Positions 2,169-60,510 of a DNA stretch of 64,000 nt are shown here, piece by piece (position 1 is the stretch's first letter; the number at the start of each line of letters is the position of its first letter). The notes under the pieces were generated by a model. That model was given only the letters and a program-made list of their open reading frames with translations, searched no databases and had not been told where the DNA came from. The DNA comes from Eledone cirrhosa. Its lineage: Eukaryota. Location: positions 194,370,001-194,434,000 of the forward strand of contig OZ024742.1 in NCBI GenBank assembly GCA_964016885.1, read 5' to 3'. The position numbers were made by a program, and so were the translations under genes.

Positions 2169-2471
2169 TTTATTCAAAGTAATCCAACTTATTTTACAAA
2201 CGGGATAAAAAAAAATAAACCGTACGCAATCCCGCAGACCTTCCTTTATTAAAGTCTAGATTGAAAATACTGATATATTTCAAAATTTCGTCAGATCTTT
2301 AATTAACATAAGCTTAGCATATATATATATATATATATATATATTTGTAGTAAGGTTGCTTGGATGCGTCTATAGGCGGTATGACGGTTGAGCACTCTAT
2401 GCATCTTCGGAGCAGACCATGATAATATGGAAAAGGAAGATACGTCTAGTGATTTCGAAGCAAATCACTAG

Positions 2472-2564
2472 ACGTATCTGAGGAACTTGCGAATCCAGAG
2501 TCAGATTCGATCCACCAACAGATCGCACCTCGAACTGTTCGCCGGAGAAACAATTGTAATACGT
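2472..2564 (+). ncRNA. Type I hammerhead ribozyme motif with 62-nt stem II insert
   Basis: acgtat CTGAGGA acttgcgaa...ttcgccgga GAAA caattg TA atacgt; perfect 6-bp stem I, canonical core, palindromic stem III ACAATTGT, GUA site. Confidence 0.75.
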
Positions 2565-2614
2565 AATAAATTGTGTTCCGATACACCACTGATTCTTCGT
2601 TTTCCATAGCATAC

Positions 2615-6150: not shown

Positions 6151-9100
6151 CGGCAATCTGTCTAGGAGAGTGACCACTCTGATTTCAAAGCCGGGGCGGA
6201 CAGAGCTCTTTGGCCTTGATAGGCAATCTGTCAAACCAATCCTGACTGGGTTACACGACAACATTGGTAAGCAGGTTGTCGGATCAGGAGATAAGGCAAT
6301 GATCAAGTAACTGTGAATTTGGTTCATACTACTAGAGGCAAGGCGGGCATATCAACTATTGTTCGATGTTTCGGTGAGGCACAACCGCTCTAATACAGAG
6401 TACTGCTTTCATTTGTATGGAGTAGCGACCACAAGTGTATATCCAGCTAATGAAAGCTAAATATGACACAAATCCTTCGATGTTCATCCCGCAGCGCTCG
6501 TCGCGCGGTTAAACAAGGAGCGCGTTCTGCAACGAATTCCCACATTGCAGTCGAAAAATCAGATACTGGGAAACATAGACGGAGAAAAGAACCAACCCGA
6601 CTTGTACACAGGAAGAAAGACATCTTTGCTGGTAAACTCAATGTTCAAACACTCCAGAAAGACCATGAAATCCCTGAACTTATTGCTTCAGCAGGAGCGA
6701 CCAACCATGATGTTATCTGTCTTCAGGAGCACCGGTTCATACATGAAGAGCTTGTAACAAAGGAGAAAATATTTGGCAATTGGAAGCTGATAACCTGCTG
6801 AGCTTGGGAAAACAATATGAATGCTGCAAATGGTGGAGTTGGAATGCTTTTCAGCCCGCGAGCCTATGACACACTTGCGAGTGTTGAAATGATAACAGCA
6901 AGGATAATGATAGCTACGGTTATCGGGAATCCTAAATCCACTGTAATCTCTTGCTATAGTCCAACAAATGTATGTGACATGGCCGAAGTAGAGAGGTTTT
7001 ACATGGAACTAACATCACTCACTAGACATATCCCGAAACATAATGTTCTCATCATTGGCGGAGACTTCAACGCGCGTCTTCGACAGCTTAATGGATTCAA
7101 ATTCTCATACCACTCACAAACCAATAGAAACGGTTGTATGCTAAGAGATTACTTGTGTGAGAACAATTTACGACGTCTCAACGCCATATTCCAAAAAAGA
7201 CCAGGCCAGTGGTGGACACACAAATCTCCAAATGGCGACAAGACACAACTGGATTATATCATATCAATCGAAAATGGAAGAACAGCGCAAAAAACTGCAG
7301 AGCATATGACTCATTTGTTAGTGTTGACTCGGATCATCGCATTGTCTGGGCCAAGATACGATTATGTCTCCGAGGGGATAAAAAAAAATCTGCAAATGCT
7401 AGTCCTTACAACTGGGCAGTTCTGAATACCAATCCTGAGACTTACAAAACCTTTGTAACCCAACTGAGCAACCGATTTGCTGCCCTACAAGACTCTGCGC
7501 CAACAAAATCGTCAAATTCTACATTTAACCACTTTCAAATGGCATTCAAAGAGGCAGCGGCCGACACCATCCCTTTAAAACCCAAGGTTAAAAAACGAAA
7601 ACCCTGGGAAACAGAGAGGATACGCCAAAAGCGCTAAAAGTTTCGAAAAGCTGCAGAAGTGAAAGACACTCAACGATCTCCAGAAAACATTAGTAAATTC
7701 AATGCTGCTTGTACAGCACTGATCAATCATATCTTAAGTACTGTCTTTTTTTTTATCCACCCGGAGACTTAATCGTATCTTGGCCGAGACAGCAAAAGTA
7801 GTTGCAGAAAAAGTAGTGACAGAGCTTCCAGCCAAGACGAACGTTTAAAACTGTGGCAACAACATTTTCAGAACCTACTTGGCAAAGCACCACAGATCAT
7901 CGCAGAACAAATAATACCAGTTTTTACAGAGGAACACCAAATACAGAAAGGTCCTTTCACTATGGAGGAACTACAGAAAGCAGTGAAAAGTATTGGTAAC
8001 AGAAAAGCGTGCGGACTCGATGAGATCCCAGCTGAAGTGTGGAAGGTACCTGAATTTCACCCAATCCTACTAGAGTAATGTAATAGTGTCTATAATCAAG
8101 ACCCCATAGTAAAATGGACTGAGGGATGTATACTCCCTTTTCCAAAAAAAGGCGATCACGGAATGGTTAAAAACTACCGTGGCATAACACTAATGGCAAT
8201 TGCTGCAAAGATGTACAATCTCATGTTGCTTGACAGAATAAGACCTGTAATTGACCCCTTTCTGAGAAAAAAACAAAATGGCTTCCGCACCAACAATCAA
8301 CATCAGAGCAAATACTTACTATTCGGCGTATTTTGGAAGGCGTAAAAGCCAAAAACCTCCCAGCAACTCTCCTGTTTATTGACTTTTCAAAAGTATTCGA
8401 TTCTATCAATCGTGGGAGGATGAGAGAGATACTTCTAGCCTACGGCTTGCCAAAGGAAACAGTAAATGCCATCATGATGTTATTTAAAACACTCGCGCAA
8501 TGGTGCGCTCACCTGATGGAGATACCAACTTCTTTGATATCATTGCAGGACTACTCCAACCATATATTGCAGCACACTCTTGCACCATATATTTTTATCA
8601 TCTGCCTCGACTATGTATTGAGAAAAGCCTTGATGGAAAACTTAGAGCTTGGTTTCACTCTCACAAAGCGAAAATCAGCTCAGAAAATCACCAATGCTGA
8701 CTACCTTAAGGAAGCAACATCAGTACTTCACAGCATTGAATCAGTTGCAAAGGAAATCGGACTCTATGTCAACGCAGGCAAAACAGAATATATTTGCCTG
8801 AAACAAGACCCCTCAGTTGGTATGCGAAGACTAAGCGGCGATATAATCAAGCAAGTTGACGATTTCAAATACTTGGGTAGCTATATCGCCTCCAAAGAAC
8901 ATGATGTTAACATCAGTCTGGGAAAAGCCTGGGGAGCATTGAATGTAATGGAAAAAATATGGAAATCAAACCTGCCGGCCAAACTGAAAAGGAATTTCTT
9001 CAGAGCTGCTGTGGAATCTGTGCTTGTTTATGGCTCTATCACTTGGACGCTAACGTCAAAACTGGAGAAAAAGCTAGACGGGGCATACACACGCATGCAC

Positions 9101-9441
9101 CGTGCTGCTTTAAACCTATCTTGGAGATAGCACCCAACAAATAAGAATATATGGCAATATACCACCTATCAGCAAGTCAATACGTAAACAGAGACTCAGA
9201 TTTGCTGGCCACTGTTGGCGCAGCAAGGAAGAAATAGCAGGCGATGTATTGTTATGGAGTCCATCTCATCGAGCAAGAAACGCTGGTCGTCCCAAGAAGA
9301 CATACGCCAAGCAACTTGAGGACGATACTGGATGCACTGCGAAAAATCTGGCAAACGCTATGAGAGACAGATATGAATGGAGGAAACGTGTCGTAGAAGG
9401 CTGAGTACGCTCGACCTGATGATGATGATGATGATGATGAT
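6151..9441 (+). mobile_element. RTE-clade LINE, near full length, frameshifted (APE endonuclease + reverse transcriptase)
   Basis: APE motifs NVQTL, ICLQEHR, GGDFNAR, LDYI, SDHR; RT motifs NYRGITL, FIDFSKVFDSI, FKYLGS; (GAT)n 3' tail at ~9417-9441; several stops and frameshifts. Confidence 0.9.
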
Positions 9442-10397: not shown

Positions 10398-12389
10398 TTA
10401 TACTTCTCTTAGGTCAGTGTTGTTTGTTTGGGTGTTGTTGTTGTTCCACTCATTCTTTCTGTTTAGCTTTGGTCTTCTAATTTCTATTTCACTGGCCTCT
10501 CTGATTTGCCTATCTGCTGGGTCATTCCTATGTTTAGATATTATTCTAATTTCTATGTTGTCTATGTTACCGTCATGATGTTGTCTAGCATGTTCGTATA
10601 GTACTGACCCGTTTTTTCGTCCTTTTAGTTCCCCCCAGTGTTGGTCTATCCTTTCACCTATGCTACGAGCTGTCTCACCTATGTATGTTGTTGTCGTGTT
10701 TCTGCAAGTACCCTCTGTACATCTTATGCTATAGACTACGTTTCTAGTTTTACAGTTTATCCGGGGGTTCACCTTACATATGATACATTTCCTATTGGTA
10801 CAGTGGGTTTTCTTAAAAGGGTAGGTTTTGCTGATCAGGGATTTTATGGTGGTTCCTGGCTTTTCTACCACCTTTATTTTTAAGTGGGTCTTTCTCAGGG
10901 CCTTTCTACACTGGTTAGCTAATTTCCCTCCAGGGGTGGCGTCCACAAACATGACACTCTGATATCTCTGGTTGTCGTACCATGATGTGGCCTTCCCTAT
11001 CTTATGTCTAGCCCTATCTAAGCTATTCCATGATTTGCTCCTGTATAGTGGGCAAATTCCTTTCATGTCCAGTTCTATGAGGGTCTTATACTTTTCCATG
11101 GCTCCTTCGTATACTCTGACTCTGTCTCTTTGGTTGTAGCCAGAGAACTGCATGCGGTTGATGAAGTGTTGGATGTGTCCTTCCATTTCTGTTGGGTCGC
11201 ACATGCTGGACACATTCTTCATCACTCGTACCAAATCTGCGATCAGAATATTAAACTTAGCACTACTGGACATTGCTGAGTTTTTGAGTATCAGGTATTT
11301 GGAGGCCATGGGTTTAGCATAGTGTGAGTGGAGAATTTGGGCTCTCTCGTCTATAGTGTTGATCCAGAGTTCTGTGTCTAATACAGGTAGTCTATTGTTA
11401 GGGTGTTTGGAAGGGAAGTCTATAGTTACAGTTATACTCTGGAGTATGGAATTAGCTATCTGCTGGATGCTTTCCATCGTGCTACGTTCTAAATCAAACT
11501 TGTTAGTGCTCTCTAGTGGGGGTGTTCTTATAACTATATTGATATCGTCTACATAACGAGAGTACATGATGAGGTCTATGGAGCTTTCATTAAGGAGATC
11601 TTTAAGTCTCCTTTCCCACCATACCATGAAAAGGTTGGCAACATCGCCAGCTATGCTGACGCCGATGGCTGCTCCCTCATTTTGGGTGTAGATTTTCTCA
11701 TTGAACTTAAATATGTGGCCCTTTAGGGTAGTTTTGATACTAGCCCCTATTGCATGTGCGACCATTTTTCTTACCTGATCAGTGTTTTGGGGGGTCCGTA
11801 TAGCTTTGGTCCACCCAATCCACCTTCCTATGGGAGTCTTTTTAGCCATTGAGGTTATGGTGGGGGGTCTACCTCTTATAGGTCTACTAGGGCAGAAACA
11901 TCTAAGGTCATGGCTGTCTAGGTAGTCAGTGTCGTAGGTAAGTCTAAGTAGGAGGCCCAGTTCGTCTGTGTCGACGTCGCAGAACTCCACCTCACTCTCA
12001 ATGATCATCTCCACACATCTTTTCACAGCAAAATCAATGTTAATGGATGGGTACAGTGACACCACATCCATGCTGCCTATTATGCAGTTGGATAGGCTCC
12101 TGTTTTTGTTGCACTCACTGATTCTGCTGAGGAGGTCCTCTGTACTTTCACATACATCTGGGGACATCTTGATTATGGGGCGTATAACCATTGAGAGGAA
12201 GTAGGAGATCCTGTAGTTGCTAGCTATATTAGCTCCGCATACAGGTCTTGTTGGTGGTCCTATTGTCGGGTCGTCGACTGTCTTGTGGTCTTTGCGGAGC
12301 CCATACAAGGGTGGTATGCCATTGTTAGACGCCTGGAAGTTGTTGGCAGTGCGTCTGCTTGGCTTTAGGATGTCAGTCCACATCATCAT
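10398..12389 (-). CDS. PLE reverse transcriptase + GIY-YIG endonuclease
   Basis: GPPTRPV, SMDVVSLYPSI, GAAIGVSIAG, YSRYVDD, LPVLD; CxxxxCxxC linker; VVYSIRC...YIGETARS...H...H; 663 aa uninterrupted. Confidence 0.92.
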   Translation of the reverse strand: MMMWTDILKPSRRTANNFQASNNGIPPLYGLRKDHKTVDDPTIGPPTRPVCGANIASNYRISYFLSMVIRPIIKMSPDVCESTEDLLSRISECNKNRSLSNCIIGSMDVVSLYPSINIDFAVKRCVEMIIESEVEFCDVDTDELGLLLRLTYDTDYLDSHDLRCFCPSRPIRGRPPTITSMAKKTPIGRWIGWTKAIRTPQNTDQVRKMVAHAIGASIKTTLKGHIFKFNEKIYTQNEGAAIGVSIAGDVANLFMVWWERRLKDLLNESSIDLIMYSRYVDDINIVIRTPPLESTNKFDLERSTMESIQQIANSILQSITVTIDFPSKHPNNRLPVLDTELWINTIDERAQILHSHYAKPMASKYLILKNSAMSSSAKFNILIADLVRVMKNVSSMCDPTEMEGHIQHFINRMQFSGYNQRDRVRVYEGAMEKYKTLIELDMKGICPLYRSKSWNSLDRARHKIGKATSWYDNQRYQSVMFVDATPGGKLANQCRKALRKTHLKIKVVEKPGTTIKSLISKTYPFKKTHCTNRKCIICKVNPRINCKTRNVVYSIRCTEGTCRNTTTTYIGETARSIGERIDQHWGELKGRKNGSVLYEHARQHHDGNIDNIEIRIISKHRNDPADRQIREASEIEIRRPKLNRKNEWNNNNTQTNNTDLREV

Positions 12390-13756
12390 GTGAGCGTTGA
12401 GGATTTTTTTTCTCTCCCATCGTGTGTTAGTTGTGCAACTTCGCTCGTGTTGGTGATGTGGGGTTGCATTGCCTCGATGTAGTTCGGCATGCTATCTATT
12501 GACATCCTACCAGACTTATCTGTGGGTAGACACACTACCTCACCATCCCTTGTGCGCTGCTTGAGGCTAACCAAGCCTTCTACAGGTTTTATCCCAAGTT
12601 GTTGGGCCTCTGGTCTGCTCTGTCTCATAGTGTACCTGTCTACTACTTGTCTAATCTTATTTCTAGCTATGGTGAACTCTGCCTCCGTCTCGTCATCTAT
12701 TTGTTGTGGTATGCAAACTCTTTTATTAAAGGGTAACCTCGTAGGGTAGATATTACCCATCTTATATGTTTTGTCAGCTGGGTTGAAAAATAGTTTCTCT
12801 AAGGGGTTGTCGTTATTTCTATCGTCATAGTTGTGTGTGTTGCTATTATTGTTATCATGGTGGTTGTTGTTGTTTCTATCCTTAGCATTAATATTATTAT
12901 TGTTATGATTGCTAGATGTATTGTTGTTTACTTCACCGTTATTGTTGTTGTTGTTACTGCTATTTCTACCATTGTGGTTGTTACTATTATTATGTTTCTT
13001 GTTTTTGTTGATGTTGCTACATGTACTATTTCCATTATTACCACTGTGGTTATTGTTGTTGTTGTTGTTCGTATTGTTACCGTTATTACTACTGTGGTCA
13101 CTGTTGCTGTGTCTGTGGTTAACGTTTCTATTATTATTATTATTGTGGTTGTTGTTGTTCTGTCTATCGCTAGTATTATTACCATTATCACTATTTCTCA
13201 CTTTCCTGCCATTGTTATGGTTATGGCTGTTATTTCTATACCCATATATATTTATATATATTTATATATATATTTATATATATATTTATATATATTTATA
13301 TATATATTTATATATGGGGCGGTGCCCCAGCATGGCCTCAGCCGGATGGCTGAAACAGGTAAAAGAGTAATATTATCCTTATCGAGCACTCTTCAGATTT
13401 TAGCCTCCACATTTATTATTATTACACTCTCTCTATACATATATATATATAAGCAAAGCCGAATCTGTTAATTTTCAGATAGTATTCTGACGGTTGAAAT
13501 ATAAGGCATGATGGACAAATGCGCAAACGGTGGTGAACAAATTAAATTAATTCATTGACTGTTTCGGGTCATGCAGAGAGAATGCATAAAAAGATGATGG
13601 TTTCATTAATCTACCACCAAACTATCTATGCTTTCACCCATTCAATGAAATATAGCTTTACAAAAGAAATCACAAAATGAAGAACCTGAAATTAATATAA
13701 AATATGTGGCTTTCGGCTAAATTTCATTCATGCTTAAATCAAATTTTTATTAAATC

Positions 13757-23808: not shown

Positions 23809-23890
23809 ATATATATAATGATATAGATGCGTTTTATATATTTTTCTGTTTTTCTATTTCAGCCACCTCTCTCTAAAATCCACATCAAAC

Positions 23891-24259
23891 ATGGATAATA
23901 CTACAGAAGATGTGCTTACAGATGAGGCATCAACGATACCGTGTTTCAATGCATACTGTGCCTCGGACGAAGACTACATTGAAATGGTTGAAGAATTTGT
24001 TCAGCCTAATGTAGGAGAATGGATTTTAGTTGTCATCTTCATCATCCTCTTCATAGTAGGTTTGGTTGGTAACTTTCTCGTATGTTATGCAGTCATCAAA
24101 AACAGCCAGATGCGAACTGTCACCAACCTATTCATCATGAACCTAGCTCTTGCCGATTTCATGGTGATTTTGATCTGCCTGCCTTCATCCCTGCTTGTTG
24201 ATGTATCGGAAACGTGGTTTTTTGGAGAGGCAATGTGTAAAATATTCCTTTACTTGCAG
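23891..24259 (+). CDS. First coding exon of an orexin/allatotropin receptor-like class A GPCR (N-terminus to start of TM3)
   Basis: C.N.YC.SDEDYI N-terminus, EWIL...GLVGNFLVC (TM1), MRTVTNLFIMNLALAD (TM2), DVSETWFFGEAMCK..YLQ; acceptor tttctatttcAG at 23862; donor CAG|GTACGT at 24259/24260, phase 0. Confidence 0.92.
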
Positions 24260-25734
24260 GTACGTCTTGCTTTCATTTATTACTTTCCTTTTATATTCAG
24301 TTAACTTTTTCTCCTTTTGCTGTCTTTTTTATTATGGTTAATATTCATTATGGTTAATATACTTATTATACATGTGTAATTTATGTTCTTACTTTAGCTT
24401 CAGGCAAGTGCTGCCATTGTTCTTCTCATTGTTCCATGTATAATGCATGCTGATTACATATGTCTACTTCCCGTATTAATACGACAGGATGTTATTTGAC
24501 AGAGATTTGTCTCTTATGTCTAGCAGGTTCAAATACAAACTGAATCAAGTTGTAAATGTTTGAGTCATATTTGAACACATGTTTATTCAGTCAGAGTTGA
24601 CCACGGGTTAAAAAGAGCAATAACAACAATATAACAACGGTGAATACAGATGATTATGGAATAATTATATTGTAATTCAAGTTGTTGCACTCGAAATATT
24701 ATGCTGTTATTGAAAGCTGTTATTCAACATTGAGTTTGTGTCTTTTCACATGTCTACTTCAAATAAGTATATACAATGAGTGGATTTATAGTTAACTTAT
24801 AAACTGTCTTGATAATTGTAGCGCATATTTATTATTTAATGATTTAAGCTACCAGTTTTATTAGCAGAACATATATTATATGTAATCTACAGCTAATCGT
24901 ACGCTAAAATGTATAAACCTATAATTTAGTATTAGCTTTCTGTGGTAATTGTTGTCTAATTCGCAGAACTTGTGATATGACTTGAAGCAATTCAACTATA
25001 TTGAATTTTTCTAGGTTGTTATCGAGGAAATAATTGTTTTTCTTCCTAGCTTCCATGCATCAAATTATATTTATCTTATCATATATTCTACCGTAAACAT
25101 ATTATATTATATCAATGTCAGCTCGTAAGAATCAAGAGAATTACTATTTGGAGGTAATTGGTGATGTTATTAAATTTATGAACGAAACAATGAGGTCATT
25201 GTATACGGTAAGTGAATTTTTATTGAAGAAAATGTGTAAATAATGAGGGAGGGCAACTTGGCTTCCATCGGAAAAATATTCATGAATTACTTTAATAATA
25301 TCAATTATATTTCATAATAATGACTTGTAACATTATGTATGCTTAAGGGATTTTCAATATTTTTGTACTTGCGTACGTTGTAGGTGGAAACACGCGACCT
25401 AGTTATTATAACATCATGAATTGCTCTTTCAAAAGTTTGTCTCCTTATCAATAGCCTGAATTGCATTATAGCTATGTTATATAATATATGTATTGCTTAA
25501 GATGATGTGTGAAACATTATATTAGTGGTTGGGTTATGTATAAATAACACCAGAGTAATATATATTACAGCAAAGTACGTAATAAAACGAATTATGGAAA
25601 TTGCCTTCGTCCCATCTGAATTGGAAAGAAACATGAGGTTGAATGCTCGATACTACTTACACCTTTATTTATTGATTGGCTGGAGTGTGTAAAAGCAAGC
25701 CCAGATGGTCAACATTTTGAAAGATATATATATA

Positions 25735-27781: not shown

Positions 27782-27967
27782 TTTAAGGAAGCACTTGCTA
27801 TTTTATCATTATGTTTAGAGATAATGTTAGAGATGTTGGAAGTGGTGGTATAAGAGAATTTAATTGTATGTTTGTTAAAGATCTTACTCTAAATATGCAA
27901 GGGAGGGAAACATTTATCTAAGGCCCTAAAAAATAGTTTAGGAATATTACTAGTAATAGATAGAGAA

Positions 27968-29538
27968 AAAGGAGAGATTCGTCAGGAGAAAAGGAGAGAT
28001 TCGTCAGGAGAAAAGAATTGCGTTGGCCGTTGCATCGTCCGGGTTCGCTGCTACTTTGCTGCCGGTAAGCAGGACAGCACATTCAACCTTTAAACATCTC
28101 TTGGATTTAGTAAAAACTGAGACACCAACATGCAATATCAGCAAGAGTTCACACGAAGCTCTGGTTCTCAAAAAGTGTTGCCTCATTGTTTGGGATGAGT
28201 GCACACTGGCAAACAAGGGTGTTCTTGAGGCATTGAACAGGACCCTGAAAGACATTAGGTATTCTACGGCTCCTATGGGTGGCATATTCCTTCTGCTATC
28301 AGAGGATTTTCGGCAAACGCTGCCTGTCATACCCAAAGGGACAAGAACTGATGAAGTGCGTACCTGCCTTAAAGCGTCCATGTTGTGGCTCTAGGTGAAG
28401 TATTTGTACCTGAGCACAAATATGCGTGCACATTTGCATGGTGACAACATGTCTGCAGCATTTGCTCAGAATATTTTAGCACTTGGTGAGGGCAACGTCT
28501 CTGCGGATGACAAGGGCGGCATAGCAATCGACTCCCTCTGCAAAATTGTGAGCAGCCCTTCTGACCTTTGGGAAGCAGTTTTTCCTAATGTCTCAACTAA
28601 CTTTAAAAAACCTCGATTGGCTCAGCGAAAGAGCCATCCTTGCTCCGAAAAATACCATGGTTAATTTTATTAACGAGCAGCTGATTGAGAAGTTTCCCGG
28701 TAAAGAACACATCTTCAAATCTATCGACCGGACGTCAGACTTCGACGATATCGTTAATTATCCAGTTGAGTTATTAAATTCCCTTGAGCCCCGAGGGCTC
28801 CCACCTCACATTCTTAAGCCCTGGGTTGGTTGTCCCATTATGCTAATAAGGAACTTGCGTCCACCAAAGCAGTGCAACGGTACTCGCATGGTCGTCAAGT
28901 CACTGACGCCCCACTTGATCGAGGCCACCATTGTAACGGGGTGCGGGAGAGGGGAGAATGTTTTCATTCCAAGGATGAACCTTTTCCCCTCGGCGTCACA
29001 TATCCAGTTCGATTTCCGGCGATCCCAATTCTCAGTGAGACCATGTTTTGCCATGTTCATTAACAAGTCACAAGGGCAAACATTGTGGGTGGAGGGCATC
29101 CATTTGGGTGAGTCATGCTTCTCCCACGGCTAAATTTATGTTACCTGTTCTCGCGTAGGGCACAGGAATGGACTTTTTGCTTACACTCCTCAAGGGATGA
29201 CACGCAATATCTTCTACAAAGAGGTGCTATAGATGTTGGTGCAGGTGCTGGAGCTATGCCGTCTGGAAAACTGGTAGGGTCACCCATAGCGGACAGATCT
29301 GACACCCAGCGGCATCAGGGCCACCATCTTGCAACTTTGGTCTACTAAATTCGCTATTGGAAGATTATTAACCCATCATTGATTGTCCAAAATGGTAATT
29401 GGTTCGTAACTATTAATAACCGGTTCAACTGCTTTATGCACTTAATTGATAAGCTTATGCGCCTTCAAGCTACGTTTACCTGTTTGTAACTTTTCATAGC
29501 AAATGAACAAACCCGAGCAACGCCGGGCTAAACAGCTA

Positions 29539-29758: not shown

Positions 29759-30161
29759 ATAAAATATTAAACAAATAATGAATAAACAATGAAACAGTTC
29801 CTTATATTAAACAAAAAAAGTTCATTATTTAACGATCGTTTCTAGGATATATATGTGTTAGAATTGGCATGCATATTCAACAGATCTATGTACAAAATTA
29901 TACAAAATTATACAAACTATCAAGATTAAACATACATACCAACACATATATACGCCGTCTATTTCTGAAGACGGCGTATATATGTGTTGGTATGTATGTT
30001 TAATCTTGATAGTTTGTATAATTTTGTATAATTTTGTACATAGATCTGTTGAATATGCATGCCAATTCTAACACATATATATCCTAGAAACGATCGTTAA
30101 ATAATGAACTTTTTTTGTTTAATATAAGGAACTGTTTCATTGTTTATTCATTATTTGTTTA

Positions 30162-30170
<9 letters not shown>
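29759..30170. repeat. Apparently perfect palindrome, 202-bp arms, 8-nt loop
   Basis: Arms 29759-29960 and 29969-30170, loop atttctga; right end abuts (TA)n. Confidence 0.92.
29960..30103 (+). ncRNA. Type I hammerhead motif with 115-nt stem II insert
   Basis: tattt CTGAAGA cggcg tatatatgtgttgg...ctaacacatatata tccta GAAA cgatcg TT aaata; base of stem II is imperfect. Confidence 0.65.
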
Positions 30171-32656: not shown

Positions 32657-32782
32657 AACACATCATTAAAATTTTAGACTCTACTTCACTGAAACATCTC
32701 ATTAGATATATAATATATATACATATATGTATATGTAGGTGTGTGTATGTGTGTGTAAACATATAAAACGCTTCTCGCTGAA

Positions 32783-34920
32783 GTAGAGTCACGGGACCAC
32801 CAACACGGCCAGTCTGTGGAGCTAACATTGCTAGTAACTACAGACTGTCCTACTTCCTCTGCCTGAGCATACGCCCCATCATTGAAATGCCCCCAGATGT
32901 ATGTGACAGCACGGAGGACCTCCTCAGCAGAATCGGCAAGGGTAACCGATCTAGGGACCTAACAAACTGCATTATAGGTAGTATGGATGTTGTGTCCCTG
33001 TATCCATCTATTGACGTGGATTTTGCCGTGGAGAAATGCGTAGAAATGATCAGTGAGAGCAATGTTGAGTTCCGTGGGATTGATACCAGTGAGCTGGGAC
33101 TCCTACTTAAACTTACCTATAGTAATAATTACCTAGACACATATGACCTTAGCAACCTGTACCCTACAAGACCAGCAAGAGGCAGACCACCTACCATTAC
33201 CTCAATGTCCAAGAAAACCTACACAGATAGATGGAATGGGTGGACCAGAGCCATACGGACCCCCGAAAACAACGATGAACTAAAGAAAATGATTGCACAT
33301 GCGGTGGGGGCCAGCATAAAATTAACCCTTAAGGAACATATGTTCAAATTTAATGGAAAAACATATGCCCAAGAGGAAGGAGCAGACATTGGTGTTAGAA
33401 TTGCAGGCGACATAGCTAACTTATTCATGGTATGGTGGGACAGTAGACTTAAACTTAAAATTAAAGAACAATTAGAAGACCCCTTAAACCTGATAATGTA
33501 CTCCCGCTACGTTGATGATATAAACATCGTAGTTAAAACACCCTCACTAGAGAACAGTCAGGAATTAGAGAAAAACACAATGGAAAGCATCCAGCAAATA
33601 GCTAACTCCATCCACCAGAGTATTAGAGTTACTATAGACTACCCAATAAACACCCCAACCATCGATTACCTGTACTAGACACAGAGCTCTGGTTAGATAC
33701 CATTAATAACAACAAACAAATCCTCCATTCCCATTATGCCAAACCCATGACTTCCAAATATCTGATCCACAGAAACTCAGCTGTTTCGGACCATACCAAA
33801 ATCAACATACTGATTGCAGATTTAGTACGGGTAATGAGAAACGTGTCCCGAATGTGCAACCCCGAAGAACTAGAGAGACGCATGCAACACTTCATCCACC
33901 GTATGCAGTTCTCTGGTTACAATCAGAGATATAAAATCAGAGTGTATAGAGGAGCCAGAACCAAATAGGAAAAAAATGTTAAATAATGACACAAATGGGA
34001 CCTGCCCCTTGTATAGGAGGAAATTTTGGAATACAATAGAAAGAACTAGGAATAAGGCTAATAGAATAAATTCATGGTATGATAGCAATAAATACCAGAG
34101 TGTAATGTTCATCGATACAACCCCTAGAGGTGAATTAGCTTACACATTTAGAACGGCCCTAGATAAACATAAACTCAATATTAAGATAGTAGAAAGACCA
34201 GGTACCTCCATAAAAACACTTATTAGCAAGACATACCCTTTTCAAAGACCCCCTGTATAGATAAGAAATGTATAACCTGTAAATTAAGCCCCCATATTAA
34301 CTGTAAAACTAGAAATGTAGTGTATAGCATAAGAAGTACTGAAGGAAAATGTAGAGACAAAAATATAGTGTACATATGTAAGACAGCTCGTAGTGTAGGG
34401 GAACGGATAAAGGAACACTGGCGAGACCTTCAAGATAGTAAAGAATCATCTGTACTCTACCAACATGCTAAAATAGAACATAAGGGTAAATTAGAGAACA
34501 TAGAAATAAAAATAGAATCTACACACAGAAAAGACGCAATGTTTAGACAAATCACAGAGGCAATAAACATAAAAGAATTACAACCAAAATTAAATAGAAA
34601 ACATGAGTGGAACACAACTTACAATTAAGGACAAAATGAAAACACACACGCACATAGAACAAACAACCAACCTGTAACATGTAAATAAACAAATAAATAA
34701 ACGAATATAAACACACACAGACACCCGGATGTGGCGCAGGCGCAGACTGAGCACACAACACACAAACAGAAACAAGATGGCGTAGGACAGAACAAAGGGG
34801 AGGCACAAAAACAAAGAAAAGAATCCCCAGTCACTGAAGAGGTCACAGAATGTGTGAGGAAAGAACTTTGACAATATATAAACCACCATCTAGTTGTGGA
34901 ACCAACCAACCAACCGGAAA
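32783..34920 (+). mobile_element. PLE, 5'-truncated and frameshifted, same family as 10060-13245
   Basis: GPPTRPVCGANIASNY, SMDVVSLYPSI, YSRYVDD, KTRNVVYSIR, LYQHA...H; hammerhead relic in 3' UTR. Confidence 0.92.
34830..34872 (+). ncRNA. Degenerate minimal hammerhead at PLE 3' end
   Basis: gtca CTGAAGA ggtcaca gaatg tgtgag GAAA gaac TT tgac. Confidence 0.55.
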
Positions 34921-35084: not shown

Positions 35085-36290
35085 AAGTAATTAAGTCAAA
35101 TAATTAAGATTTGGTTTCGTTTATTAAAGATGTACTGCTATATATATTTCGGTGACAGCCATCATTCGCTGTGACCTCTTCAGGCAGTTCGAATTGGTGT
35201 GGTAGAGACAGATAAACATGTTGTTAAAGTGTTTTACTCCGTCAATACTCCGCTATGTCCAGCTCCTGGTTGGGTTGTTATTTCTCTGAGGAACTGGAAT
35301 CATATGAATTCGAACAAACGAATTTCGGCATCATAGGACACTCACTCTCCCCATAGGTCAGTTGTGAGAACATTCCTCAGTCAAACGTATATAGAAATTT
35401 TGTTCTGATATAGTCACGATTGACGGGGTACACATTCAAGGGGACGCCTGGCCCGGTCACCATGGGGCATGGCACCGTGGCTGGGGTGTGCTGTTCTACA
35501 TGTTTGGGGTATCCGACCGGGTGACCGTGGGCCCAGTGTTAGCCGGTCCGGCCTAGGCGATGTATCTGCCCAATGTTGTGTGCTCGGTCAGGTGCGACCA
35601 TGGTTTACATATGTTTTCCACACGGGTCGCACAATGTCATCGGGGCATGGCGTCAGGTCCCCTAATCCCGTAGGGCCGTTCGGGACTGTGCGTACCCGCT
35701 CCCATGCTCCCGGCCTGCGATACCCGGAGAATTGCATGCTTGCAAATGTGCATCTTCTCTGGTATCTGCAGGTCATGATAATTTCAGACTTCAGATTGAC
35801 CGCGTCATCTTTCAGTCTGACTATCTCCATGGCCTCGCGTAGGCATAATCGTCACATTCTACTTCCAGCCGAGTATGCTCTCGCATGCCGAACGATACTC
35901 CATTCCAGGCCGTACGGAGTGCCTTGGTCTTTCAGGTCCCACACCAGGTCCGCTAACCTAGTGGAATGCCTTTTGATACGGTCCTTGAAGGAATTCGTGT
36001 GATTATACATCGGCGATTTAAAGGTCCTGGATGTTGCGCCGATGTAGGTGCGATGCCCAATTGGGGTTGTAACCACATACTTGTATATCATGTCCTTCAT
36101 CAGGCATTTTCCCTGTAGGGGGCACTGGGTACCCGATCTGCAGTTACAAGTTCTATTGTCAGTTCTTACGCATCCGATGTCCGGTCCTCGATCTGTTATG
36201 GCCCTCTCAAGGTTCCCTGGGTTTTGTTCCTCGACACTGTTGTCTCCCCTATGCCACTAGTTCCCTCTCGGCGTTGGATCACATCACCCC
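35080..36290 (-). mobile_element. Hydra-clade-like PLE 3' fragment (GIY-YIG + 3' UTR)
   Basis: CNCRSGTQCPLQGKCL (CxCx5C), IYKY...YIGATSRTFK..MYNH..SF; ends in (TA)n. Confidence 0.85.
35134..35188 (-). ncRNA. Minimal type I hammerhead ribozyme
   Basis: Minus: actgc CTGAAGA ggtcacagc gaatgatg gctgtcacc GAAA tatata TA gcagt; 5-bp stem I, 8/9-bp stem II, canonical core. Confidence 0.85.
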
Positions 36291-37568: not shown

Positions 37569-38059
37569 TGTGCGTAGGTATGTGTGTGTATATGTGTATG
37601 TTTGCGTGGGTCGTGCGTGTCGGACCGCATATATGGCGCGACTTAGACAAGCGCTAATAGGCGGTATCTAGAAGTGGGTGTGCCTGGGTCTGTGGAAGAG
37701 AGGGGGAGTGTGTGCATGTATATATATGTGTGGGTGTGTGGGGGTCTACGCATGTATCCGTACATATGTGTATGCACGCATGTGTCTGTGTCTGCCTGTG
37801 TGTATATGTGTGTGTATATATATGTGTGGGTACATACTCTGGAGTGTGAATAGACGTGTGGGATACCGAACCCAGCATGACTCCATTGAAGTGTGTCGGA
37901 CGGAAAATGGCTGATGACACCTGTAGCAGTAAATAGTGACCAGAAGTTAAGATGACGTGGAGTAACAACACCCATTGGCACAAGAGTTGGAGAGGTTTTT
38001 TTAAGGTGTTTTTTTTATGATAACACACCAGTGATAAAATTTGCTCCGAACGAACTGCC

Positions 38060-38148
38060 CGTGTGTAGGAACCTGCAGCCGTAGAATCAGCCAAATCCAT
38101 ACAGCGACCATGTCTCGAACTCCCTACCGGCGAAACAATTGTGACACG
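38060..38148 (+). ncRNA. Decayed homolog of the 2472-2564 hammerhead
   Basis: cgtgt gtagga...ctcgaact...ccggc GAAA caattg TG acacg; downstream tail also homologous; core and cleavage base mutated. Confidence 0.55.
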
Positions 38149-38354
38149 CAATAAATTGGGTCCAGATGCATCACTGATTTTTCGTTCCCTTATACTATAT
38201 ATATATAATTATAAAATGTGGAGGAGCACACGAGTTGGAATATATCATCATCATCATCATCATCATCATTTTACGTCCGCTTTTCCCTGCTTGCAAGGGT
38301 GGGACGGGTCTTATTCAGCACAGCATCTCTCCATATATTTATATATATGTAAAT

Positions 38355-40345: not shown

Positions 40346-43300
40346 ACCACTATCTGCGTTTGTATTCACATTTCAATGGTACCTTACTTTCAAAGAATGT
40401 TTCCATTATGCGCTGATTTGGCTACTTATAAAGGTACCGGAAAAAACACGCGTATCTCGGGAACCCGTGGTCCGATTTACGTGAAACTTGTCTTTTCACT
40501 GTATTATTCACAAGTATTTTCACAAAGAAAATATCAAATCATTTTTCACTAATAGCTATCCAATCACTCCACTTAAAAATTCTATTTTCTATATCTCTAT
40601 GGATGCTTGATTGTTGGTTCTGAAAGATTTTTCTGCTTAAAAAGTTGCAATGTTAAAGAAAAGCTGGTTTTATTTAGAAAAATTTGAAAGAAATTATTCT
40701 TACTTCTCTTAATTTTTCCTTTTCCTTTCATTTTCTGACGTCGGAATCAACATTTTCTCATATTTCCGCTGTTACAGTTTGTTCAAGAGAATGCTTTTGA
40801 TGACAACATTCTTAGTTGATTGGGTATCCTTCAGAAACACTCTGAGATTTTCTTTTCGTTTTCCGCGGCTAAGGGCTACATACAGTTGACCGTGTTGGAA
40901 TACAGGTCGTTCCAGATAAACCAAGACGTTTTCCATAGTTTGTCCTTGTGCTTTATGAATAGTCATAGCGAAGCACGACTGAAGCACCATCACTCACAGC
41001 ATTATAGGATCGGTACTCTTTTATGGTTCCAGGGAAGCGTCTGATACAGGTGGAATTGATGCTTCTCATCATTTCATTGAAAGGTACTAAGATGCAATTG
41101 TTCGAAAACACTTCAGCTGGATTGTCGAATGAGGGGTAGATGAAATCAATACATTCTTCCATGGTTGTTGCTTGGAGAACCATTTCTTTTGGCAAAATAA
41201 TTTCCTAATTTTCAGGGGTTTTTTATCTTATCTTCTCCAATATCCAATAGGAACTGTGAATAGTCTCCTGCTCCCCCACCCAATCGCATGTTTGTCTTCA
41301 ACTGAAATGTTTTGAAGCTTCGACATAAGTATGATTTTTTTAATGCAGGCGTTTTCCACGTTCGCTTCATTTCCCCTTTTCACTACCGGAAGAAGCTGAC
41401 GGAAATCGCCACAACAATTGTCAAAATTCCACCGAATGCCTCATTGTTGTCGCATATGTCACGCAGAGTGAGGTCAACAGCTTCGAAGCTTTCCCTCCGA
41501 ATCATAGGACACTCATCCCAACCAAACAATCAGCCTTGTATGCTGGAAAAGGTTTGCCGTCTTTGAGTTTTTATCAATGTTGCACAGAACATTTTCTTTC
41601 ACTACTATCGGTATTTTGAACCTAGAATGTGCTGTTCTCCCACCATGCATCAGTGTTGCGGCAATGCCAGATTAGGCAACATCAATAGCCACGTTACCGT
41701 TTCCCCTGAATTTTGAACGAATTAAGTTAATCAGAAATGTTTTTCCTGTTCCACCTGGAGCGTCAATGAAAATCAATGCAGATGTGTTCGTCTCTAAACT
41801 GTTACAAACGAAGTCGTACACGTGTTTTTGTTCACTATTCAATAGAGGCCCCGTCTCTTCTACAAATCGTCGCTGCTCTTCTCTGGTGTATTGCAATTCA
41901 TGCAATAACTCCAAATTGCCAATATCCTCATTAGCAACAATATTAATTGGCCTTGACAAGTTAAAGTCACTAAGACTTTTGCCCAGGTCGTTAAGTTTGT
42001 CTTCAAAATACAGAAGACATTGATCATCATAACTCTCGTTAATCAAAAGGTTAGAGCTTCTGGTAGTCCTTTTTTCTATTTGAAGGTAATCCTCAGACAG
42101 CAAATTCTTAAATCGAACCCATAAAGCACTGGAATTGTCAATTTCCGTATTTGTGAGGAGCACGATGAATAGATCTCTCATGTTTTGGGAAGCCTTGGTC
42201 GCTCAGCATCTTCCAGAGTCTGCTGCCAATGAACATCCGATTGAAGCAAACCTTTCTCTCTGCAGACGTCTTTGAATAATGGAAGGAGTTTTCCATCACA
42301 CATTTTCAAAAAGTTGAAGGATACTGGCCCTTTGACGTGATGCAGAAGGTGTCTTAAATAATACAGGTCATCACTCCGTGGAAGAAACAGTGCATACTCT
42401 TCCCAAAACGTTCGCCTCAAAAATCCCTGGATACTGCTCAACTATTTTCCCCACCTTTCTCCTTTCCCATCTCTTATTACTCCAAGTTTAAAACTTTGGC
42501 ACATCGGCATAATACGATGTTTTTGAAAACGGATCGCGATCGCAAAGATCCATGAACTCAGTCCGAGTCGTCTTAGCCATGTTATTGTTTACTTTAACAA
42601 CAGCACTGACCCGAAAGAAGATTTGATTTTCCGCAGGTAGATGAACTTGAAGGTGAACTACGACCGGTTCTCTCTCATGAATTGGAAATCCAAGTACCAA
42701 GGCAACAGCTTCTGAAGGACCGATATATCCTCCTGTTAAATACTGTATTATCTCATCCTCCCTGTTCCCTCCAAACATTGCCTGACCACTGCCCTTCATG
42801 GTATATTTGATAACGTATTTGATCGATTTCACGGAAGAGCACATCTCTACGTTTAGGAGGCAGTTGAACACTTTTAATAGTTTCATATTGTAGGGAACCA
42901 CCCATTCCGAAGTTATATTTCGGCTTCCCCTTCCTTCTTGGTGCCCCTCAAATCCTCCCATTCCTGGAGACCGTCTTCTGTACACAAGATAAGAGTCTTC
43001 TACACACAATGTATATTCATTGAAAGGCTTAGGGTACCGCTTACTGCACGTTCCATCTTTCCAACACAGCGAATTGTTAGAGCAATTCGGACCGTGGATC
43101 ATGTGCTTCAGCACCAATTCATGACCCTCTGGATCTTTGTTTGGATCTGGTATTTCGGCTTGAACAAATTTATCATATTCCTGCGGTCTGGGCTTGGAGG
43201 CTTCAATGAGCCATAGCAAACAGAGCCCATGAGGAAGACATCGCTTTTGATATTCGACTGTCAGCACGTAAGCTATGCACTTGCCAAATAGGCCATCTAC

Positions 43301-45558
43301 TCCAGTAAGATACTTTCTTAACAGTTTCCGCTTCAGGTCAAATACTCTGGCAATTAAATCTGGCCTGTCGTGTGGCTTCTGATTCAGGAATAGGTTTTGC
43401 CGGATTTCAGGCCAGTTTTGATTGCATGTCATTGTGATGAAGAAAGAAGGATTGCCGTACTTCCGTATGTACATCATGGCATCCTGGCATCGCTCCATCA
43501 TATATCTCGGTCCACCGACAAATGTGGAAGAGAGTATGATTCGCCTGCCAATATTGCGAAAATCACCATCATCATTCAATGCGTCAAGAAGGCCCTTGTA
43601 TGTTGTAGATCGCAATGATGTTTGATTCATTCGGACGTATTGCAGTCTATCTCCTTCAATCTTCGCAGCCATGTCAACCAAATATTGCTGAAATAAACGA
43701 CCGCCTCTGAGAAGTTGGTTGAATTAATTCTTATGGTTCATTATTCGATATGCATAGTAGCGCATTGGCGTCAACTTCTTGTTGTTGTTCATTAACAGCT
43801 CATGATGCTATCCGTCATCGCCAAAAGGAAAAAGTAGAACATACTGCAAACTGTCATAGGACCGATGGAACTCTGAGATTATTTCCAATTGTCCGCCCCT
43901 TTCTTTCAACACAATGTACCGTGCTTTTGCTTGAAGTTCGGTGTTGTTTTGTATAATAACGGCCACTTCGTTTGCAGTTTGTGCATTGATCTTCTCTCAT
44001 GTTCCATTGCTGGCCTCCTGTCAGGATCAATAATAATCGAAGATTCGGGAATATTTTTAATCTGTTCTTTTGCATGAAGCAGCGTAAGGGTTATATTGTC
44101 TGAGTATTATTTCCAATAATTCAACTATGTCGCGCTAAATGCCATCGTTATGGAGTATCCTGATCCTCAAATCAACACTATCCTGAGGATCCAAGAAGTA
44201 AATTTGAAGAAATTGGGGTTGTTCGTTGGGATTAGGGGTTAAGGAACCGATGTAATGGTGAATTTGACCATGAATAACGATAGAAAGATTCCATCCACTC
44301 CTTGAGGAACGAACTACTTCGGCCCCAAAAGATGTCATTTGGAACAGCCAGTTGTATTGCTGAGGTCGTTCCTAAACTCGTTTGCCCTAGGTTGATCAGT
44401 ACTAAATAAACTGTGAAGTTCCTGGGGTAATGGCTGCAGATTCCCCAACCTGACTTCATGCAGCAAAAGTTCGCAGTTTCACTATGAAAAATGATTGCAT
44501 GACAACAGACACAGATCTTATTCATCTGTCCAACATCAGCAGAGAGATCACGTCGTTGAACTATCCTTGCTCTATCCCTAATGGTTTTTTGGCAAAGACG
44601 TTCATTTCTCCGACCATCCGATTCACGATCTCTCCTGCTTCCGTCTCTTTCCCTCTGTTCCGCCAGACGCGCAGCCCTTGCTATATCAGTCTCATCGATC
44701 CTTCTATTCGCATGGCTGTCCCGATCTTGTTGGCGTTGTCCACTATCTTGCTCACCTTCCCCGACTCTCCTTAGCCGTGCTTTCTTTCCCCTATCAACAG
44801 ACCAACCAGATGTTTTCTTTCTTCCTCGCCGAGGCATTATTTAAGAATCTAAGATCGTATTCACCTTGGAAAAAATTCCTAATACCTCAACAAATATTTT
44901 TTTTAAATCATCATTTAGAAATATTTCTAAATAATGAAAATATTGTCTGTTTAAACAACTCGTATTTTTCAAATCATATTCACTTAAAAAATACTTATTA
45001 ATAATTAAAATATTCTGTTTAAAGAAAGCTGAAATATATATACTCGGTGTACAAATAATTTGTAATTTTTATGTCATTTTCACTTAAGAATATTTTCTGA
45101 ATATGCCAAGAAATATTTTTTCCATCGTATTCACTTGAAAATATTTTTAAAAAAATGAAGATATTGTCTATGTATTTACACAAATTCACTTTAAAATATT
45201 TCTAAATAATTGAAATATTCTTTTTAACAAAAGCAAAAATATAAACACCTACTGTTTAACACCAACTGGTATTTTTCAGTGATATTCACTTAATGCTATT
45301 CTGATAATTAAAACATTGTCTGTTTAAAGAAAGCTCAAATATAGATACTTGAAGTACAAACAACTTGGAGCTTTGAAATCATATTCACTGAGAAATCACT
45401 GAAAAATCTTTTTTTAATAATTATTAAAAATATTTCTCGACTGATGAAAATAGGTTATGTTTATTTACATCAAACTTGTTTTATCCCAATTTCAGGGTTA
45501 TGTCACCTACAGGGCTATTTTTCCATTGTGCACCGTTTTGGGTATTTACGAAGGTATC

Positions 45559-54481: not shown

Positions 54482-57400
54482 ATTCCACCTGCCACCCCCT
54501 CCTCGCCCACGCCATCCTCCTCTTCATCCAAAACCTCAACCACGACCTCTTCTCCTTCCTCACCTCCACCAAAGCCCGTAAGCTACACTCACTCCTCCCA
54601 ACCACCCCCATCCACCACCACCCGCCCATCCTTATGAGCCCCCCACACCCATCCCTCCCATCCCCGCCACTCTCCACCCTCCCTCTACCCACACCCCTAC
54701 CCAATCTCCACCCTCCACCTCACCCCTCACCACACCCTCCCTTCCTCCCTCACACACACAAACCCCCCCACTTTTTGTCACGATACCCCCTGACCTCCCC
54801 CTCTCCGCACCTGAGCGCTCACTCCTTAGTAGAGGCCTTCGCTTCATACCCCACAATCCGCACAGCGACTAATTCCGCATCCGAACGGAAGTCGAGCGAT
54901 TCGTGCGACGCACGAAGCTACAGGCACATTTCGGTCAAACGCCACCGGCTCCGAACGACCCGGAACCGTTTCTCGCCCTGGGCCGACGACCATCTTCTTG
55001 GACGCCAGCCCCAGGGCAATTTAGCACCCTGGACGCGTTCGTCGATGCCAGCCGTAGCGCCGTAAATCGTTTCGACTTCCGCCACCGTTCCAAACGGAAT
55101 AACATCACACGGGGCGAACTCCTCGCTCTCCGCTCCCCCCGTAGCCGAGATGACATCGTCATCAAACCGATGGATAGGGAGGCGCCGTGGTGGTGTAGCG
55201 CGCGGACCTCGACACGGCCGAAGCCCTCAGGCAGCTCCGTAACCCCCTCTTCTACCGCGCTCTACCCTCCGATCCTACACCCCTCTACCAACAACAAGTT
55301 TCCTCCACCATCCAACACCTTGTCTCCTTCTCCCTCCTCCCCCACCGCTTCCCACCTCATCATCCGCACCCCCGCACCCCCCGAACGCCCACCATCTACT
55401 TCCTCCCCAAACTCCACAAACCCGACAACGCCGGCCGCCCCATCATCTCCGCTTGCAACTGCCACACCGAACTCATCTCCGCCTTTCTTGACTCCATCCT
55501 AGACCCCTTGTCATCACCCTCCCCTCCCACATCTCCGACACCAACCACGCCCTGCGCCTTTTCGACTCCTTCACCTACCCACCCGGCCCACAGCCCTTCC
55601 TCTTCACTCTAGATATCAAGTCCCTCTTTACCGTCATCCTCCACGCCGACGGCCTACGTGCCCTCAAGCACTACCTCGACCTTCGCCTCTCCCCCCTCCC
55701 CTCCACCCCAACCGTCCTTCGCCTCGCCGAGCTGGTCCTCATCCTCTACTGTTTCTCCTTCTGGGGTGAGTTTTACCAACAGGTTACGGGGGTAGCCATG
55801 GGTACAAGAATGGGCCCAAACTATGCCAACCTTTTTGTTGGCCATGTTGTGGCCCAAATCTTTGCCCAGTACACCGGCCCCACGCCCGAACTGTACGGTC
55901 GTTACATCGACGATTGTATCGGAGCCACGACCCTCACCCGAGAACAGCTCGACTCTTTTCTCTCCTTCTTCTGCTCCTTCCATCCCTCCCTCCACTTCAC
56001 CACCTCTATCTCCACCACCCACGTCCACTTCTTCGACATCTCCGTCTCCTTCGACCCCTCCCACCACTCCCTCGTCACCTCCGCCTTCTTCAAACCCACT
56101 GACACCCACTCCTACCTCGACTTCACCTCTTCCCACCCTACACACACTAAACACTCTATTCCCTACTCCCAACTCCTCAGGATCCGCCGCCTCTGTATCC
56201 GAGATGCTGACTTTGAGTCCCAGGCCCTTTCCCTAGTCAGCCATTTAATCCGCAGAGGTTACCCCTCCTCTCTCGTCCACATCGTGCCCGTGCTGTCCAC
56301 CGCTCCACCACCCTCACCCCACTCCACCGCACACCCACGCACCGTCTCCCCTTCCCCATCACCTACCACCCCTCCACCATACCCCTCCACCGCACCATCC
56401 TCCGTCACTTCCGACGCCTCCAGTCCGACGCCTCCACCTTCCACATCTTCCCAGCCCCACCAATCCCCTCCTTCAAACGCGCACGCAATCTCCGCACCCT
56501 CCTCGTCAACAGCTCCCTACCACCCAACCCACGGACCCCCCCGGTTCCCTTCCCTGTTCCAGGCCCCGCTGCAACACCTGTCCCTACATCACCAACACCA
56601 CCACCTTCCAGGGTCCCAACGGCCACTCTCTCTCTGTCCGGCATGCCTTCCGCTGCACCTCCTCCAACCTAGTCTACGGACTTCGCTGCACGGAGTGCAG
56701 CGCAACCTACGTCGGACAGACTGGACGTCGCCTGGCGGACCGGTTTACTGAACACCTCCGAGATATTCGTCTCGGTGGTAGTTCCCCCATTGCCCGCCAC
56801 TTTGGTGCCCCTTGACATTCCGCACACCACCTCACAGTCTGTGGCCTACTCCAATGCCAGGGAACACCCGCCACTCTACTCAGGGTCGAACAACGAACCA
56901 TCTTCACCCTACAGACAACCCCCGCCACCCACCCCCACCCCGCCGGCCTGAACTCCCCACCCTTATTCCTTTAGCCTTCCCCCACACATATCCCCCTCTA
57001 ACATAACTAACACACCCCTCCTTTTCACCGCCCACCCCACAACTAACAATACTAACACCTCCACCCCACACCCGACCACCCTTCCCCAGCTAACTTACTA
57101 ACATCCCTCCCTTCTTCTCCCTCCTCTCCTTATCACACGCACACACCCACCGGTACATATATACACGCGCTCACACTAAACACACACCCTACTACCACCA
57201 CTAACCCTCACCCCCACAGATCCACCCCACCACCCCGCAACTAACATCACTAACACCCCCCGACCCCACGGACACGAACACACACACCCACTTACACCAT
57301 CACTCTACAGGCAACTAACATCACTAACACCCCCCAACCCTACTCACACGAGACCACACACCCTCTTACACCACCCACTCTACACACACTACCACCACTG

Positions 57401-60457: not shown

Positions 60458-60510
60458 TAAAACCAATGAAGAAAAACAAAGAACAAGTTCCTTATATTAA
60501 AAAATTCATC

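Follow-up and report, generated by a model that had tools for sequence, protein, structure and literature searches.

A likely Penelope-like retroelement remnant in Eledone cirrhosa carries a predicted hammerhead with a long, covarying stem II

We report that positions 2343-2608 of a 64-kb window of the Eledone cirrhosa genome (the whole 64,000-nt stretch analysed here) form, with a probability that we put near 85%, a short, rearranged pLTR of a Hydra-clade Penelope-like retroelement (PLE), bearing a type I hammerhead, for which cleavage is predicted in dimer form only, and an adjoining 18-mer that is likely a scar of insertion. The initial annotation of this AT-rich, microsatellite-dense window had described the hammerhead candidate and its hairpin and had missed the parent retroelement, which we identify as a probable Hydra-clade PLE. 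What is new, judging from sequence, is that stem II of a Hydra-type PLE hammerhead is extended and covaries. The role of the hammerhead in PLEs is described as unsettled in the literature (PMC11167929 among the sources), and seven subfamilies that share a long stem II, with cores ranging from canonical to likely impaired, provide a test of whether fold or chemistry is under selection.

Anatomy of the motif

Features of the insertion and of its sister copy in the window are as follows.

2319..2344, no strand: (TA)n target microsatellite on the left side; Hydra elements prefer to insert at (TA)n
2343..2440, minus strand: inverted arm, piece 1, comprising the 3' end of the pLTR and its tail of ~80 nt (+214 to about +120 from core C3)
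2438..2466, minus strand: inverted arm, piece 2, which holds the 18-mer (positions +1 to -27)
2451..2466, no strand: fold-back pivot, an inverted copy of the native mini-hairpin GATTT-GCTTCG-AAATC
2472..2477, plus strand: 5' strand of stem I, ACGTAT
2478..2484, plus strand: core CUGAGGA (C3-A9), canonical here and the same in 53 of 65 subfamily A copies
2485..2546, plus strand: extended stem II of 62 nt between the core halves, with an A-A mismatch at its base
2547..2558, plus strand: GAAA, a 2-bp stem III with a palindromic loop (predicted dimer helix) and the GUA site
2559..2564, plus strand: 3' strand of stem I, ATACGT
2565..2608, plus strand: 3' part of the pLTR, with AATAAA (2565) and a short 3' end, then (TA)n/(TG)n
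[quoted passage not shown]
38040..38196, plus strand: copy of sister subfamily E, with a decayed core and a GUG site

The hammerhead parts that the initial annotation had listed are all present on direct sequence check: the core CTGAGGA at 2478-2484, the perfect stem I acgtat/atacgt at 2472-2477 and 2559-2564, the 62 nt that separate the core halves (2485-2546) and, within GAAACAATTGTA at 2547-2558, the palindrome ACAATTGT of stem III together with the GUA site. Cleavage of the motif at 2472-2564 is predicted between 2558 and 2559.

The parent element is a PLE of probable Hydra type

A search of the 3.0-Gb assembly with 2380-2620 returned 2574 first-look candidates, of which the best 40 were scored. 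Copies end at about +135 or about +214 from C3 and then run into (TA)n. We walked upstream from eight long loci and examined 20 further loci. A GIY-YIG fragment lies in the same orientation 1.5-2 kb upstream of the motif in four of the eight long loci; a genome search with this fragment gave 55,604 candidates (the best 150 scored). Two loci demonstrate the linkage to reverse transcriptase (RT) and endonuclease (EN): L092 carries RT, EN and a 94% identical subfamily A motif, while L094, of subfamily B, comprises a pLTR with tail, RT, EN, UTR and a second pLTR, with an 85% identical motif and a tail that passes into the ORF region at its 5' end. [quoted passage not shown] Direct and inverted pLTRs with an optional tail are likewise as in PLEs, the tail being ~80 nt versus the usual 30-40.

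The Hydra clade is defined by RW[KR], DKT, CxCx5C, CxxC and CxH (PMC8557442, section 11). We found RWR, DKT, CxCx5C and CxxC in L094, CxCx5C, CxxC and CxH in L084, and CxCx5C and CxH in the EN of L092; the RT motifs are read from the sister subfamily loci L094 and L084, L092 giving EN motifs only. These marks, together with insertion at (TA)n, fit membership of the Hydra clade. No intact subfamily A ORF was found among the loci examined. Between RT and EN, near the thumb region, the ORF of the parent family (L084-L093) contains long low-complexity insertions rich in Thr, Arg and Pro, reminiscent of the N-rich inserts in rotifer Penelopes (PMC3846280).

The 5' ends of the sense arms in the 30 close loci (L001-L030) gather at -32 to -38 from the core in 17 cases, a possible transcription start or truncation hot spot. 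Short copies could instead be a self-amplifying non-autonomous element, either retrozyme or SINE-like, rather than truncated PLE ends. Such an element would suit the close start of the sense arm, at most 38 nt from the core in 28 of the 30 close loci and at -32 to -38 in the 17 just mentioned, as well as the 2574 first-look candidates for the motif against 327 for the UTR just upstream; animal retrozymes have also been proposed as PLE derivatives in parts of the literature. But the query itself favoured short copies, the ends match the PLE tail, and the arms vary from copy to copy. Moreover, non-LTR retrozymes are described as tandem, whereas the mapped loci contain no head-to-tail arrays: their arms lie head-to-head in single insertions. 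We regard a non-autonomous element as unlikely and take the short copies to be truncated PLE ends.

A covarying hammerhead fold with a long stem II

We scanned 891,836 bases in 214 records, a sample enriched for the families searched, with a descriptor combining the core, GAAA, a self-complementary stem III and a stem I of at least 5 bp. It found 145 distinct motifs in the sample and 0 in each of five shuffles. Genome-wide, the exact pattern of core, stem I, GAAA, stem III and site matched 217 times and its control 0 times, and 50 shuffles of the window contained on average 0.02 long-stem matches. The motif has CUGAnGA, GAAA and NUH placed in a three-way junction with an open stem I; the base of stem II lacks the G10.1-C11.1 pair, being A-A in the window copy and paired only in subfamilies G and H. 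Rfam reported no hammerhead among 11 matches at E<=10 on 2400-2610, and only hairpin- and microsatellite-type matches among the 150 of 263 matches listed for the whole window. The long stem II likely explains the missed match at 2400-2610, and descriptor and Rfam searches undercount such motifs.

The 207 distinct copies fell into seven clusters (187 copies) and 20 singletons, and 11 rows were aligned: the window copy, the seven cluster representatives and three further variants. Across these 11 representatives RNAalifold, unprompted, recovered a consensus made up of stem I, a single long stem II with interruptions and a stem III of 2 bp; 11 of its 27 pairs show two-sided changes. This bears out the hammerhead architecture that had been proposed and makes the long "insert" of the initial annotation a genuine, covarying stem II. 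In the named structure, 90.9% of 308 cells are paired and two-sided changes occur at 11 of 28 pairs; none of 500 shuffles reaches its covariation score and 469 of 500 are at least as high in pair-type count; these figures are not probabilities, and the shuffle and slide controls overstate significance because the rows are related (two are nearly identical) and the structure was derived from those same rows. Covariation is present in stems I to III, with statistics that are inflated by the related rows. The majority insert folds to the same hairpin in all seven subfamilies, with z between -0.6 and -2.9. The palindrome of stem III is kept as AAUU, AUAU or GAUU, with AUUU in one subfamily; C3, G5, G8, A9, GAAA and GUA are invariant in all 11 rows. 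The base of stem II is a mismatch (A-A, A-C or A-G) in five of the seven subfamilies; U-U is given as the best tolerated mispair at this position (PMC3088659), and many published Hydra motifs are mismatched there as well (PMC8557442).

A merely accidental likeness, in which selection acts on no RNA structure, is barely credible for the motif. The lack of an Rfam match and the failure of the window copy's insert to fold end to end would agree with it, yet the aligned representatives covary, in 7/7 subfamilies the majority insert has this long hairpin as its MFE, and the position at the PLE 3' end agrees with that of published Hydra hammerheads (PMC8557442). Two other readings of the neighbouring sequence were rejected. 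One took the 62-nt insert for an intron, as the D. virilis motif abuts an intron according to passages of PMC4209133; it is a covarying hairpin of constant length. The other took a native 3' flank fold (GGAAC with GUUCC, stem III with AAUUGU), which also abolishes stem I in the ensemble of the window copy, for a family-level switch; it lacks covariation support, with a two-sided change at 1 of 11 pairs and as high a value in 236 of 500 shuffles.

In the folding models, the palindromic stem III predicts action as a dimer. For a typical subfamily A copy (L012), the predicted homodimer MFE is exactly the active strand-swapped dimer, at -55.0 kcal/mol; for a subfamily G copy, the predicted dimer MFE (-60.9 kcal/mol) differs from the active dimer (-57.6 kcal/mol).

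The core is canonical in subfamilies A, G and H. It has drifted in the other four: to CCGUCGA in C (18 of 29 copies), to CUGAAGGA in E (21 of 38), to CUGAAAGA in F (three of three) and to CCGAGGA in B (four of five). Several subfamilies thus retain the fold while the catalytic core drifts. Changes of A6 and an insertion after A6 lower activity in other hammerheads (PMC3088659), and in a lizard PLE core mutants had no effect on in vitro insertion while cleavage required protein (PMC11167929). These points, and the persistence of the stems and of GAAA and GUA in B, C, E and F, would agree with a fold kept mainly as a platform that binds or positions the RT-endonuclease, with self-cleavage weak or lost in some lineages. 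Such a function, which is compatible with the PLE origin and differs from it only in what the fold is for, strikes us as possible but doubtful: A, G and H retain the canonical core, C3, G5, G8, A9, GAAA and GUA vary in none of the 11 aligned rows, and the covariation of the palindromic stem III is what catalytic dimers would show.

The 18-mer is likely a stump of an inverted arm

As the initial annotation stated, the 18-mer at 2438-2455 is the exact reverse complement of 2462-2479, across a 6-nt loop, and covers the 5' strand of stem I and the first bases of the core. Its claim that the 18-mer would sequester stem I also holds in folding predictions for a transcript that starts upstream: the predicted stem I probability is 0.7-0.9 without the 18-mer and 0.0 with it, and with the 18-mer the hammerhead-like fold is predicted at -17.0 kcal/mol versus an MFE of -40.9 kcal/mol (a gap of about 24). 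The description of this hairpin as "built-in" did not survive comparison with other copies. Each of its two junctions has exactly one exact match in the 3.0-Gb assembly, at the window locus itself, and among 30 close loci an inverted piece that stops after 18 nt occurs in the window copy only.

The left arm reads as a reversed element, from +214 to about +120, followed by a 121-nt jump at a shared AGA and then by +1 to -27; pieces 1 and 2 meet in a 3-nt AGA/TCT microhomology (2438-2440), where these 121 nt were lost. The sense arm follows through the AAATC of the native GATTT-GCTTCG-AAATC mini-hairpin, and this AAATC, at the fold-back pivot (2451..2466), is common to both arms. Within the window there are four perfect inverted repeats with arms of at least 18 and loops of up to 30, one being a 202-bp fold-back.

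Head-to-head arms recur in the family. In the 30 close loci, which were obtained with a query that favoured the inverted-arm layout and include two that are arms of one place and two that are a near duplicate, an inverted piece adjoins the sense arm in 27 and ends at many positions. It covers stem I in eight, seven of which continue to +60 through +214 and span most or all of the ribozyme; the window copy alone stops at +1. Adjacent inverted arms were also seen in 7/20 loci of subfamily G, 7/20 of H and 9/20 of C, and in 0/30 of E, for which the query favoured long copies. In long copies native UTR occupies the position of the 18-mer, as seen in all 24 loci that were selected for this UTR and mapped. 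Many inverted tail pieces break off around +111 to +131, a little inside the 3' end of the sense arm, as twin priming would give.

Taken together, the 18-mer is likely the stump of an inverted, truncated pLTR arm of the kind typical of PLE insertions, left after the 121-nt deletion. The sense arm holds the sequence that is missing from the left arm, and a snap-back copy of an already deleted strand is therefore rejected; either two cDNAs were presumably joined or the deletion came later.

A selected antisense switch, which would keep the ribozyme off until transcription starts internally or an opening factor acts, would profit from the perfect 18-bp complement over stem I and C3-U4 and from a pairing that is predicted to win by about 24 kcal/mol. 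We consider it very unlikely, and the comparison of copies largely refutes it. Among the copies we found neither recurrence with fixed ends nor covariation of the 18-mer; against a switch also stand junctions that occur once in 3.0 Gb and lie on microhomologies, inverted pieces that end at many different positions among the close loci, junction palindromes that are a described PLE by-product (PMC3846280), and a stem II that is decaying in the window copy. A "built-in switch" is unsupported, and the locus itself is ordinary transposon debris.

The two copies in the window

The window copy had been put forward as the best long-insert hammerhead candidate, an assessment that does not hold: three private substitutions (2505, 2516 and 2534) set it apart from the subfamily A majority and weaken its stem II. 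At the same three positions it differs from bulk contigs of one sequencing run, which show the family in bulk. Its insert folds at -14.8 kcal/mol versus -21.0 for the majority, and not end to end, with stem II pair probabilities of 0.16-0.34 at best. Being single, with a weakened stem II and predicted to be hairpin-blocked if read through from upstream, the window copy is likely inert.

The homolog at 38 kb is 79% identical to the window motif over 73 nt. A genome search for its subfamily, E, returned 2434 candidates (the best 40 scored). The change of stem I from cgtat/atacg to cgtgt/acacg, which the initial annotation had called compensatory, is genuine covariation of subfamily E, an A-U to G-C exchange that stands in the alignment; the copy in which it was noticed has a decayed core. 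CUGA is lost in this copy, whose core is GTAGGA against CTGAAGGA in 21 of 38 subfamily E copies, and its site is GTG (GUG in RNA) where 35 of 38 read GTA. Compared with the EN pieces that precede subfamily A copies, the GIY-YIG fragment at 35855..36256 shows 50-84% identity.

A proposed course of events

PLE RTs are reported to start at two internal sites that define the tail, which equals the gap between them, with both strands nicked at AT-rich DNA (PMC11167929). Known traits of PLE insertions include an inverted 5'-truncated arm, a tail that is optional, and palindromes of 18 and 38 bp at the junctions (PMC3846280). In the scheme we propose, the element's RT-endonuclease would have opened the (TA)n target and begun copying at two points within the pLTR; both arms would then have met head-to-head at the native GATTT/AAATC mini-hairpin; and the left arm would have lost 121 nt at the 3-nt microhomology, during copying or in later repair of the palindrome, leaving 18 complementary bases.

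In the parent element, two ribozymes may pair through the palindromic stem III, swap stem I strands and cut after GUA. Cleavage would probably be slow or protein-assisted. Metazoan PLE hammerheads are described as cutting weakly, as dimers (PMC4209133), and the lizard PLE hammerhead as cutting only with protein and being dispensable for in vitro insertion (PMC11167929). The starts at -32 to -38 in 17 of 30 sense arms may mark an RNA 5' end, in which case the upstream pLTR would have given rise to most copies as short products.

Relation to described PLE hammerheads

The motif shares with the Hydra-clade PLE hammerheads of Craig et al. 2021 (PMC8557442, section 11 and File S2) its type I architecture, its place near the 3' end, the CUGAnGA core, a frequent mismatch at the base of stem II and a short self-complementary stem III, and the elements share the (TA)n target and the RW[KR]/DKT/CxCx5C marks. 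They differ in stem II, which with its loop measures at most ~24 nt in the 26 rows listed in File S2 and is short there, whereas it is 61-62 nt here, with bulges and an internal loop. With a 3' UTR of 1.5-2 kb and a long low-complexity linker, the element here is also longer than the Hydra elements described there (<3 kb).

Minimal metazoan PLE hammerheads (Cervera and de la Pena 2014, PMC4209133) are likewise located in the pLTR, have a palindromic stem III, a predicted dimer form and low expected activity, and occur in opposite-strand pairs 100-700 bp apart; their helix II has 6-8 bp with a conserved G10.1-C11.1, compared with ~20 interrupted bp, usually without that pair, here. The Anolis Poseidon element PAc (Frangieh et al. 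2024, PMC11167929) shares two 3' ends that define the tail, AT-rich targets and a hammerhead upstream of the RT start sites; it belongs to another clade, its ORF starts inside the hammerhead and its stem II is short. From the inverted pLTRs of Adineta Penelopes (Arkhipova et al. 2013, PMC3846280), with head-to-head arms, an optional tail, microhomology deletions and 18- and 38-bp palindromes at the pLTR 5' end, our locus shows no difference in kind, except that the leftover arm here covers stem I of the ribozyme.

Two spike-moss PLE-X1 hammerheads reach a stem II region of about 48-53 nt and are flagged as deviating (PMC8557442, File S2), and the "half-core" cases in Naiad have core halves 35-50 nt apart. 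Both belong to other clades and deviate from descriptors, and the passages compared show no covariation for them. A search of the open-access literature found no prior description of long-stem-II PLE hammerheads.

Long versions of stem II recur in this genome: 61-62 nt here and 79-115 nt in further local families, while still others have 14-52 nt. It is conceivable, though we would bet against it, that the PLEs of this animal lineage repeatedly extended stem II to 60-115 nt, that the RT-endonuclease uses the long arm as its recognition domain and that the fold outlives catalysis in some subfamilies. If so, these folds would make up a class of ribozymes that Rfam and standard descriptors miss; this would account for the "half-core" cases in the literature, and the PLE hammerhead would do more than cleave.

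Other families and genes

A second hammerhead-like family has a stem II of 80-115 nt and a Hydra-type EN upstream in three of 20 loci. At 29759-30170 it forms a perfect 202-bp inverted repeat with an 8-nt loop, the pivot lying in the hammerhead-like core (115-nt stem II), and it recurs at 60505-60640 on the minus strand with a 99-nt stem II; 630 first-look candidates were found. In five rows of this family (motifs at 60632 and 29965) the long hairpin is kept, with two-sided change at 0 of 30 pairs, and RNAalifold paired the core with GAAA instead, leaving the hammerhead fold unconfirmed. A third family, with a CCGATGA core and a stem II of ~79 nt (79 nt in the motif at 61909), is found at 53-300, as a head-to-head palindrome, and at 61900-62067; by eye, one apparent two-sided change separates stem II of the two copies. 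The segment 35285-35400 (plus strand) holds CTGAGGA followed by weak hairpins, and no GAAA/stem III partner was seen in it.

Related PLE genes with RT and GIY-YIG-like domains, 72% identical in DNA, lie at 10401-12491 (minus strand, a 697-aa open frame) and 32782-34625 (plus strand); they have a CxxC linker that is not of Hydra type, and their Pfam RT matches are below cut-off. A frameshifted RT and GIY-YIG element at 54873-56812 (plus strand), also with a CxxC linker, is presumably Neptune-like. The degenerate LINE at 6454-9127 (plus strand), with endonuclease and RT frames, we take to be RTE-like, and 27960-29130 (plus strand) and 41675-43723 (minus strand) we assume to be fragments of Helitron-like helicase/Rep genes. 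An apparent first coding exon of a rhodopsin-type GPCR, which we take to be neuropeptide receptor-like, lies at 23822-24301 (plus strand), with the window motif ~21 kb upstream of it and the 38-kb copy downstream.

Outside the window, L063 (4183-7620) and L058 carry a 782-aa Hydra-type ORF in tandem and inverted copies that are 99% identical, with a hammerhead-like motif ~0.95 kb downstream (91-nt stem II, palindromic stem III). This is likely a young family and a good test case.
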